From NCBI GenBank assembly GCA_013166775.1, contig JABLTJ010000024.1, positions 1 through 53,427 on the forward strand: a stretch of 53,427 bases of DNA. The letters run 5' to 3'. Numbering within the stretch: the first letter of the stretch is position 1; each line of letters begins with the position of its first letter. The translations under genes were made by a program, and so were the position numbers. Positions 29,766 to 29,864 of this stretch are shown in pieces. Origin of the DNA: Promethearchaeati archaeon (GTDB lineage Archaea > Asgardarchaeota > Heimdallarchaeia > Heimdallarchaeales > Heimdallarchaeaceae). The notes below the pieces were generated by a model that was not told where the DNA came from, did not search any database, and worked only from the letters and a program-made list of their open reading frames with translations.

Positions 29766-29864
29766 TCATCGACCTGAATACAACACTAATTTTCTAATTG
29801 CTAAAGCTCTTTCCTTTGCAAGCTCTTTTCTGATTTGAAGTTTTTTTTCGAAATTGGGTTTCAT
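29766..29864 (-). CDS. Unannotated 32-aa micropeptide P2 (MKPNFEKKLQIRKELAKERALAIRKLVLYSGR)
   Basis: Hand translation; GGAGG Shine-Dalgarno 8 nt upstream; follows A2; pyrimidine-rich terminator-like tract downstream; matches the family motif. Confidence 0.78.
   Translation of the reverse strand: MKPNFEKKLQIRKELAKERALAIRKLVLYSGR

Follow-up and report, generated by a model that had tools for sequence, protein, structure and literature searches.

The question raised by the 53,427-nucleotide contig JABLTJ010000024.1 of a Heimdallarchaeaceae archaeon (GCA_013166775.1; the entire contig is referred to below as the window) is whether a reading frame of only 32 codons, denoted P2 and located on the minus strand at positions 29,766–29,864, immediately downstream of the longer, related gene A2, is a gene at all and, if so, what its product might do. 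Hardly anything has been mapped of how Asgard archaea regulate their genes, and genes as short as this one often go unnoticed. We find that P2 is a real, conserved gene for a 32-residue protein, predicted to be a basic (net charge +7) amphipathic helix, and that it belongs to an undescribed microprotein family whose members lie under two distinct operators. Among the possible functions considered, intracellular modulation of an ArsR-type regulator, R, ranks first.

The ATG of P2 is preceded at a distance of 8 nt by a GGAGG Shine-Dalgarno (SD) sequence (29,873–29,877, minus strand), which is kept in six of six orthologues, and the start codon lies 33 nt past the stop of A2, at position 29,898. 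Across the P2 interval, the plus strand contains many stops. In these respects the sequence-only reading, which had proposed an open reading frame (ORF) downstream of A2 with a GGAGG SD and a 33-nt gap, was accurate, the strand being minus. Proteins 87–93% identical to A2 are encoded on five independent metagenome contigs (L192, L198, L199, L200 and L203), all of which keep A2, a 32–33-nt gap with an SD, a 32-residue P2 and the next family gene, A3; P2 was predicted by gene callers in three of the five. Across the six P2 orthologues, the proportions of synonymous and non-synonymous differences (pS and pN) are 0.40 and 0.083, respectively, and the ratio of non-synonymous to synonymous substitution rates (dN/dS) comes to 0.15 in pairwise comparison and to 0.22 when distinct changes are counted (binomial p ~1e-6, the pairs not being independent). 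The C-terminal half of P2 is under tighter constraint (0.12–0.14) than the last 33 codons of A2 (0.32). Similarly, for short genes standing alone elsewhere, represented by nine orthologue groups with a single pair taken per group, dN/dS is 0.26 (Fisher p ~1e-12). The short length of P2 and its absence from this locus in most genomes of the genus might suggest a decayed duplicate or a chance ORF; however, decay predicts a dN/dS near 1, and the range obtained, 0.15–0.26, together with the six intact orthologues, refutes this explanation. Two more distant contigs (L202 and L204) carry a 34-residue gene in the P2 slot, and these are the nearest non-identical relatives of P2. In L202, the A2-type gene (1995–2300) is disrupted by a short tandem duplication causing a frameshift, possibly an assembly artefact.

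The window encodes five members of the family, all on the minus strand. A2 (29,898–30,149; 83 residues, TTG start at 30,149) is a long form predicted to consist of an acidic two-helix hairpin followed by the family C-terminal helix, and A3 (29,376–29,639; 87 residues) and A1 (20,728–20,988; 86 residues, ATG at 20,988) are its long paralogues; the starts of A2 and A1 were corrected from the SD position and the orthologues. P1 (20,581–20,697; 38 residues) is a second short form, which starts 30 nt past the A1 stop behind a GGAG-type SD and has an intact orthologue in L201, where the A1-P1 order is retained (four synonymous and two non-synonymous changes). A profile of the shared tail retrieved members in 26 of 31 Heimdallarchaeaceae genomes, all within two genera, whereas the rest of a 300-genome sample of the phylum yielded nothing convincing and a search of 1.8 billion representatives nothing other than proteins of these same kinds. 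When the search was iterated over every locus fetched, it gave 50 distinct short forms of 32–41 residues, nearly all with a clear SD and with a mean net charge of about +6.6, and some 80 long forms. Alignments of the two classes match across the last 27 columns (hhalign probability 97%, E 7.5e-11), showing the short form to be homologous to the long-form tail; the alignment of P2 with P1 given in the sequence-only reading also holds, with nine identities across the 25 residues ending at the glycine. What the two classes share is a C-terminal helix that is basic and amphipathic and closes with an invariant Gly. In the structural model of A2 (predicted template-modelling score 0.40), three helices span residues 2–22, 29–45 and 49–79, and the short forms correspond to helix 3. 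The conserved positions fall into a single hydrophobic stripe with a period of 92–94 degrees on an otherwise charged surface, and the family lacks a segment able to span a membrane (best 19-residue Kyte-Doolittle mean 0.02).

Neither Pfam, NCBIfam nor PDB-sequence searches gave anything above chance for the family; a feature search of the ESM Atlas with P2 or A2 returned no usable match, a fold search with the A2 model produced only generic, uninformative helical hairpins (best Z 6.3), and the literature yielded no description. A suspected resemblance of P2 to ArfA, Pup or the ubiquitin tail was not borne out by a profile search, and a reading as a double-glycine leader was dropped, as only 0–4 residues follow the Gly. 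Longer fused forms were not found, which is weak evidence. The family is modular, given that a 56-residue gene consisting of the N-terminal hairpin (helices 1–2) alone directly follows a long gene in two loci (L022:1294–1464 and L062:5187–5357). Judging from sequence, P2 represents an undescribed family of tiny, apparently helical proteins found in two genera of Heimdallarchaeaceae.

Is the long-then-short order of A2 and P2 a functional pairing? The sequence-only reading had suggested so, regarding A1-P1 and A2-P2 as one repeated arrangement, a deliberate full-length/minimal pair such as agonist and antagonist, and noting that P1 and P2 end in Ser-Gly (SG) and A1–A3 in Arg-Gly (RG). Put as a microProtein model, the short form would be a minimal partner of the neighbouring long form or would act on it in a dominant-negative way, with the residue preceding the terminal Gly as the switch. 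That split is true of the window and dissolves across the family: the residue before Gly is K in 23, R in 13, S in 9, N in 4 and Y in 1 of the 50 short forms, 36 of which therefore have RG or KG, and R in 30, K in 16, F in 12, T in 8, I in 7 and V in 4 of the 80 long forms. The nine SG short forms are the six P2 orthologues, the L204 gene and two P1 copies, and the three other short forms of the source genome end in KG (both on C102) and RG (C61). The pairing itself is upheld in one subclade, where the A2-short-A3 order is retained in seven contigs besides the source contig, and is not a design rule of the family: only 10 of the 50 short forms come after a long gene, all at P2 or P1 loci, 18 genomes of the genus have an A2-A3 gap of 100–117 nt without a peptide, short-then-long orders and three-gene arrays also occur, and no long form could be found alongside the three short forms of genome G013 (89% complete). 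Nor do the two pairs derive from a single duplicated cassette, since P1 is not the sister of P2: in a list of 127 ordered by closeness to P2, it stands only at about rank 72, and a tree of 25-residue cores, which has low power, supports only the grouping of the P2 orthologues with L204 (0.92), without placing P1 among them. The A2 tail ranks lower still (about 87th of 127), so that P2 is closer to other family members than to its neighbour. It should be noted that a partner role does have points in its favour, namely the equivalence of the short form to the C-terminal module of the long form, the hairpin-only genes and the retention of the order in the seven contigs; on balance, we regard it as unlikely. 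By comparison with microProteins such as Id, LITTLE ZIPPER and miP1a/b (PMC4807768, PMC9638782), P2 likewise consists of one module that has its homologue within a larger paralogue; unlike in those systems, the large form of this family has about 85 residues and no known activity, and most short forms are not linked to a long gene and have their own regulation. In microProteins, the shared module is a protein-protein interaction (dimerization) domain; in the P2 family, its sequence displays an amphipathic pattern. Of the microProtein definition, the family matches just the anatomical half, dominant-negative action being a proposal.

Regulation of these genes provides the second line of evidence. 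The A2-P2 transcript has a TATA-like box at 30,218–30,225 (minus strand), conserved in orthologues, and downstream of it a palindrome of the TTCTCA-N5-TGAGAA type, Box-2 (30,185–30,201, minus strand), which by sequence is placed as the operator of a repressor. P2 has no promoter of its own and would be transcribed by read-through as the second gene of this transcript. A U9 tract (29,883–29,891, minus strand), a candidate leaky internal terminator, separates the A2 stop from the SD of P2; the longest T runs in orthologues are 5–9, with 7 in L204. Archaeal operons commonly contain internal terminators that reduce the expression of the genes behind them (PMC10450193), so the level of P2 would probably be below that of A2.

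Box-2 (TTCTCA-N5-TGAGAA or its N7 variant) flanks the TATA boxes of genes encoding R and of the genes facing them; 59 R promoters contain 40 N5 and 18 N7 sites, against fewer than one each in shuffles (0.7 for N5). In the window, sites occur in the promoters of A1 (21,055–21,071, strand unspecified), A2, R2, R3 (site at 32,688) and R4 (site at 33,494). The four R paralogues, all on the plus strand, are R1 (21,226–21,924), which is divergent from A1, R2 (31,871–32,575), R3 (32,761–33,465) and R4 (33,611–34,291). All four are ArsR winged-helix regulators resembling PH1932, and the R2 model (pLDDT 90), which comprises a winged helix and a five-helix C-domain of about 95 residues, matches PH1932 (PDB 1ULY; Foldseek E 1.5e-9; TM 0.53/0.64; 20% identity). 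Like R, PH1932-type ArsR proteins, as described by Itou 2008 (PDB 1ULY/2CWE; cited in PMC4486848), combine a winged helix with a helical C-domain and have a palindromic operator at the TATA box, whereas R differs in its low identity, a variable insertion ahead of the recognition helix and a lineage expansion. We infer from these features that R is the binder of Box-2. In the source genome, 6 of 10 R genes, at four loci, face genes of the microprotein family, and R is expanded to up to 11 matches in the family-bearing genus compared with one or two in three genera in which the family was not found, kin not being independent. The C-domain of R averages a net charge of -4, opposite to the +6.6 of the short peptides. 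R-facing operons elsewhere consist of a peptide gene followed by a major facilitator superfamily (MFS) transporter gene, which points to an efflux or stress response. Between R2 and A2, the window contains a 334-residue acidic gene (30,385–31,389, minus strand) without a Pfam or NCBIfam match; as an R gene directly faces A2 in L202 and L203, it is here an interruption.

Divergent transcription of a regulator and a small peptide gene is also a hallmark of RRNPP systems such as Rgg/SHP, in which the receptor is of the tetratricopeptide repeat (TPR) type and the peptide carries a secretion signal, is exported and is then re-imported. By analogy, P might be exported, perhaps via an MFS protein, trimmed to its hydrophobic tail, re-imported and sensed by R. 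The Lys-rich N-terminus and the short hydrophobic, Gly-containing tail would suit such a peptide, as would the presence of MFS genes in the regulons and of two family-5 solute-binding protein genes near A1-P1 (18,605–20,584 and 24,207–26,219), although the regulator-adjacent or divergent layout itself is found only for P1, P2 and a minority of the short genes. Several properties contradict this scenario. P2 has no signal-peptide hydrophobic region, its middle being charged; the C-domain of R is not a TPR-type receptor; selection acts on the whole 25-residue helix and on the N-module of the long forms, not just on a short core; long fused forms and a second, independent regulon exist; and no Box-2 site scored above threshold upstream of the two solute-binding genes. 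We thus consider an exported signal improbable, slightly more so than the partner role discussed above, and do not assign the system to RRNPP.

A3, although it follows P2, has its own promoter, in which a second element, Box-1, a tandem TCACAA-N-TTGTG palindrome (29,688–29,712, minus strand), is located just upstream of the TATA box. The same arrangement precedes 29 of the 50 short genes and A3-type genes, and Box-1 occurs in 28 of the 31 Heimdallarchaeaceae genomes, with control counts near zero. A matrix trained on the other genomes identified four strong sites in the source genome, at A3, the two C102 peptides and a diverged 40-residue peptide. Further targets are a leaderless MFS gene of about 457 codons, which starts some 61 nt past Box-1 without an SD (L209, L215, L236 and L205), and an operon encoding a 400-residue bactofilin-repeat protein (PF04519) and a 100-residue HTH_45 protein, which has Box-1 ahead of its TATA box and is present in a single copy in 28 of the 31 genomes (in the source genome, G000 C54:65417–67033, with the HTH_45 gene at 65417–65764; orthologue L218:2063–3666). 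Both regulons thus contain MFS genes. In L225 (G019:C201, about 1957–2300), an A3-type intergenic region with Box-1 is fused to an MFS-like gene that replaces A3, an apparent promoter capture. The HTH_45 gene and Box-1 are found in the same four genera and are both missing from the fifth, which is represented by two single-contig genomes; this co-occurrence suggests that the HTH_45 protein is the one that reads Box-1, probably as an activator. Box-1 resembles the Thermococcales glycolytic motif TATCAC-N5-GTGATA of TrmBL1, a similar palindrome from which activation occurs at a position upstream of the transcription factor B recognition element (BRE) and TATA box (PMC4706686). It differs from that motif in being tandem with a 14-bp period, in targeting peptides, MFS genes and the bactofilin-repeat/HTH_45 operon instead of sugar genes, and in its likely binder, an HTH_45 protein in place of TrmB.

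The promoter of A3 also bears on the notion that P2 controls the gene behind it in cis, as a leader peptide or RNA element. Some short genes do head operons with an MFS gene and the U-tract lies beside P2; however, A3 does not depend on P2 for a promoter, the neighbour behind many short genes is convergent, folding of the A2-P2 junction is no stronger than that of shuffled sequence (z +0.62), an Rfam search gave no match and the synonymous sites of P2 vary freely. Such a leader function is highly improbable.

What, then, could P2 act on? We favour, at a probability of roughly 35%, an intracellular docking helix that modulates R. According to this proposal, R would repress the A2-P2 transcript, and P2 would be made inside the cell as its second gene. 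The hydrophobic stripe, together with the terminal h-h-h-x-x-G motif (h, hydrophobic), would serve as a docking element for a protein groove, the likeliest being in the acidic C-terminal helical domain of R, and the peptide would feed back on its own repressor by anti-repression. Long and short forms would be parallel paralogues sharing this helix, with no fixed on/off pair, and the Box-1 regulon, probably through its HTH_45 activator, would add copies, linking a second stress input to the R-controlled MFS exporters. Purifying selection, strongest on the C-terminal half of P2, and an amphipathic stripe without a membrane segment fit a docking helix, and feedback on R is ranked first because of the divergent layout, the co-expansion and the charge complementarity. 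The proposal has a precedent of sorts in SinI/SinR, where SinI mimics the oligomerization domain of SinR. There too, a small protein is encoded beside the repressor that it is proposed to relieve, but, unlike for SinI, similarity between the P motif and R could not be detected: with the motif matrix, R scores -11.5 and shuffled R -11.8, and hhalign gives a probability of 0.2%, so that P as a mimic of an R helix was rejected.

Four observations weigh against modulation of R. R and Box-2-like sites are present in Thorarchaeota-type genomes and in other Heimdallarchaeaceae genera that yielded no family member, so R can do without the peptide; several R paralogues in the source genome face MFS or other genes and no peptide; the majority of short genes are controlled by Box-1 and lie at a distance from R genes; and regulation by R shows the peptide to be an output of R and is not in itself a sign of binding. 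A stress effector with a different target is nearly as likely. Such a target could be a conserved machine (the ribosome, RNA polymerase or nucleic acid), or the peptide could be an accessory subunit of the co-regulated MFS exporters. This would account for the family being a common output of two unrelated regulators, for the six short genes directly ahead of an MFS gene (and likewise one in the source genome, on C61), for the A3-type promoter that now drives an MFS-like gene in G019, and for the strongly basic character of the peptides, which adjoin Arg-rich ORFs of 48–55 residues in the same operons. Conversely, most short genes have no MFS neighbour, profile searches revealed no similarity to known ribosome- or RNA polymerase-binding peptides, and a universal machine would be expected to have a ligand of wider distribution than the two genera in which the family was found.

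If the peptides do bind R, they would provide a protein ligand for an archaeal ArsR subfamily, the PH1932-type, for which we found no peptide partner reported in the literature. A more far-reaching version, which we put forward more tentatively than either modulation of R or a non-R target, is that P2-type helices are the first peptide ligands of archaeal ArsR/PH1932-type repressors and constitute a diversified peptide-regulator code, in which HTH_45 and Box-1 would induce exporters indirectly via anti-repressor peptides, and long, tail-only and head-only forms would tune the response. Irrespective of the target, and within the two genera in which the family is found, the analysis adds a microprotein family for which selection has been measured, two operators have been mapped and candidate regulators can be named; it unites long, short and head-only forms and uncovers a second regulon with a candidate activator, for which Box-1 is the candidate binding site. 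With four small proteins and two short DNAs, the circuit is small enough to be rebuilt in vitro.

Several further small genes accompany the family. On C102 of the source genome (G000 C102:19133–20671; L038), a recent duplicate of a short gene and its Box-1 promoter flanks a gene for peptidase M55 (D-aminopeptidase), and the duplicated genes differ by five synonymous and zero non-synonymous changes in the C-terminal part. A second conserved peptide family under Box-1, of 40 residues, in which a strong SD precedes the gene and an aromatic-Gly motif lies close to the end of the peptide, is represented in G000 (C78:40471–40593) and in L212, L214, L222, L224, L229, L234 and L237, and is possibly a diverged branch of the P2 family. 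The Arg-rich ORFs of 48–55 residues, which have a strong SD, share operons with family members in L030, L127–L133, L146–L148, L240 and L241, forming arrays of up to three small genes ahead of an MFS gene. In addition, G000 C66:4486–4705 (L039) contains tandem basic ORFs of 30 and 34 residues with SD sequences, the longer of which is weakly family-like and lacks the Gly, and comparable basic ORFs of 32–33 residues occur near R genes in genera g3 and g4 (L187 and L190) and in L064.
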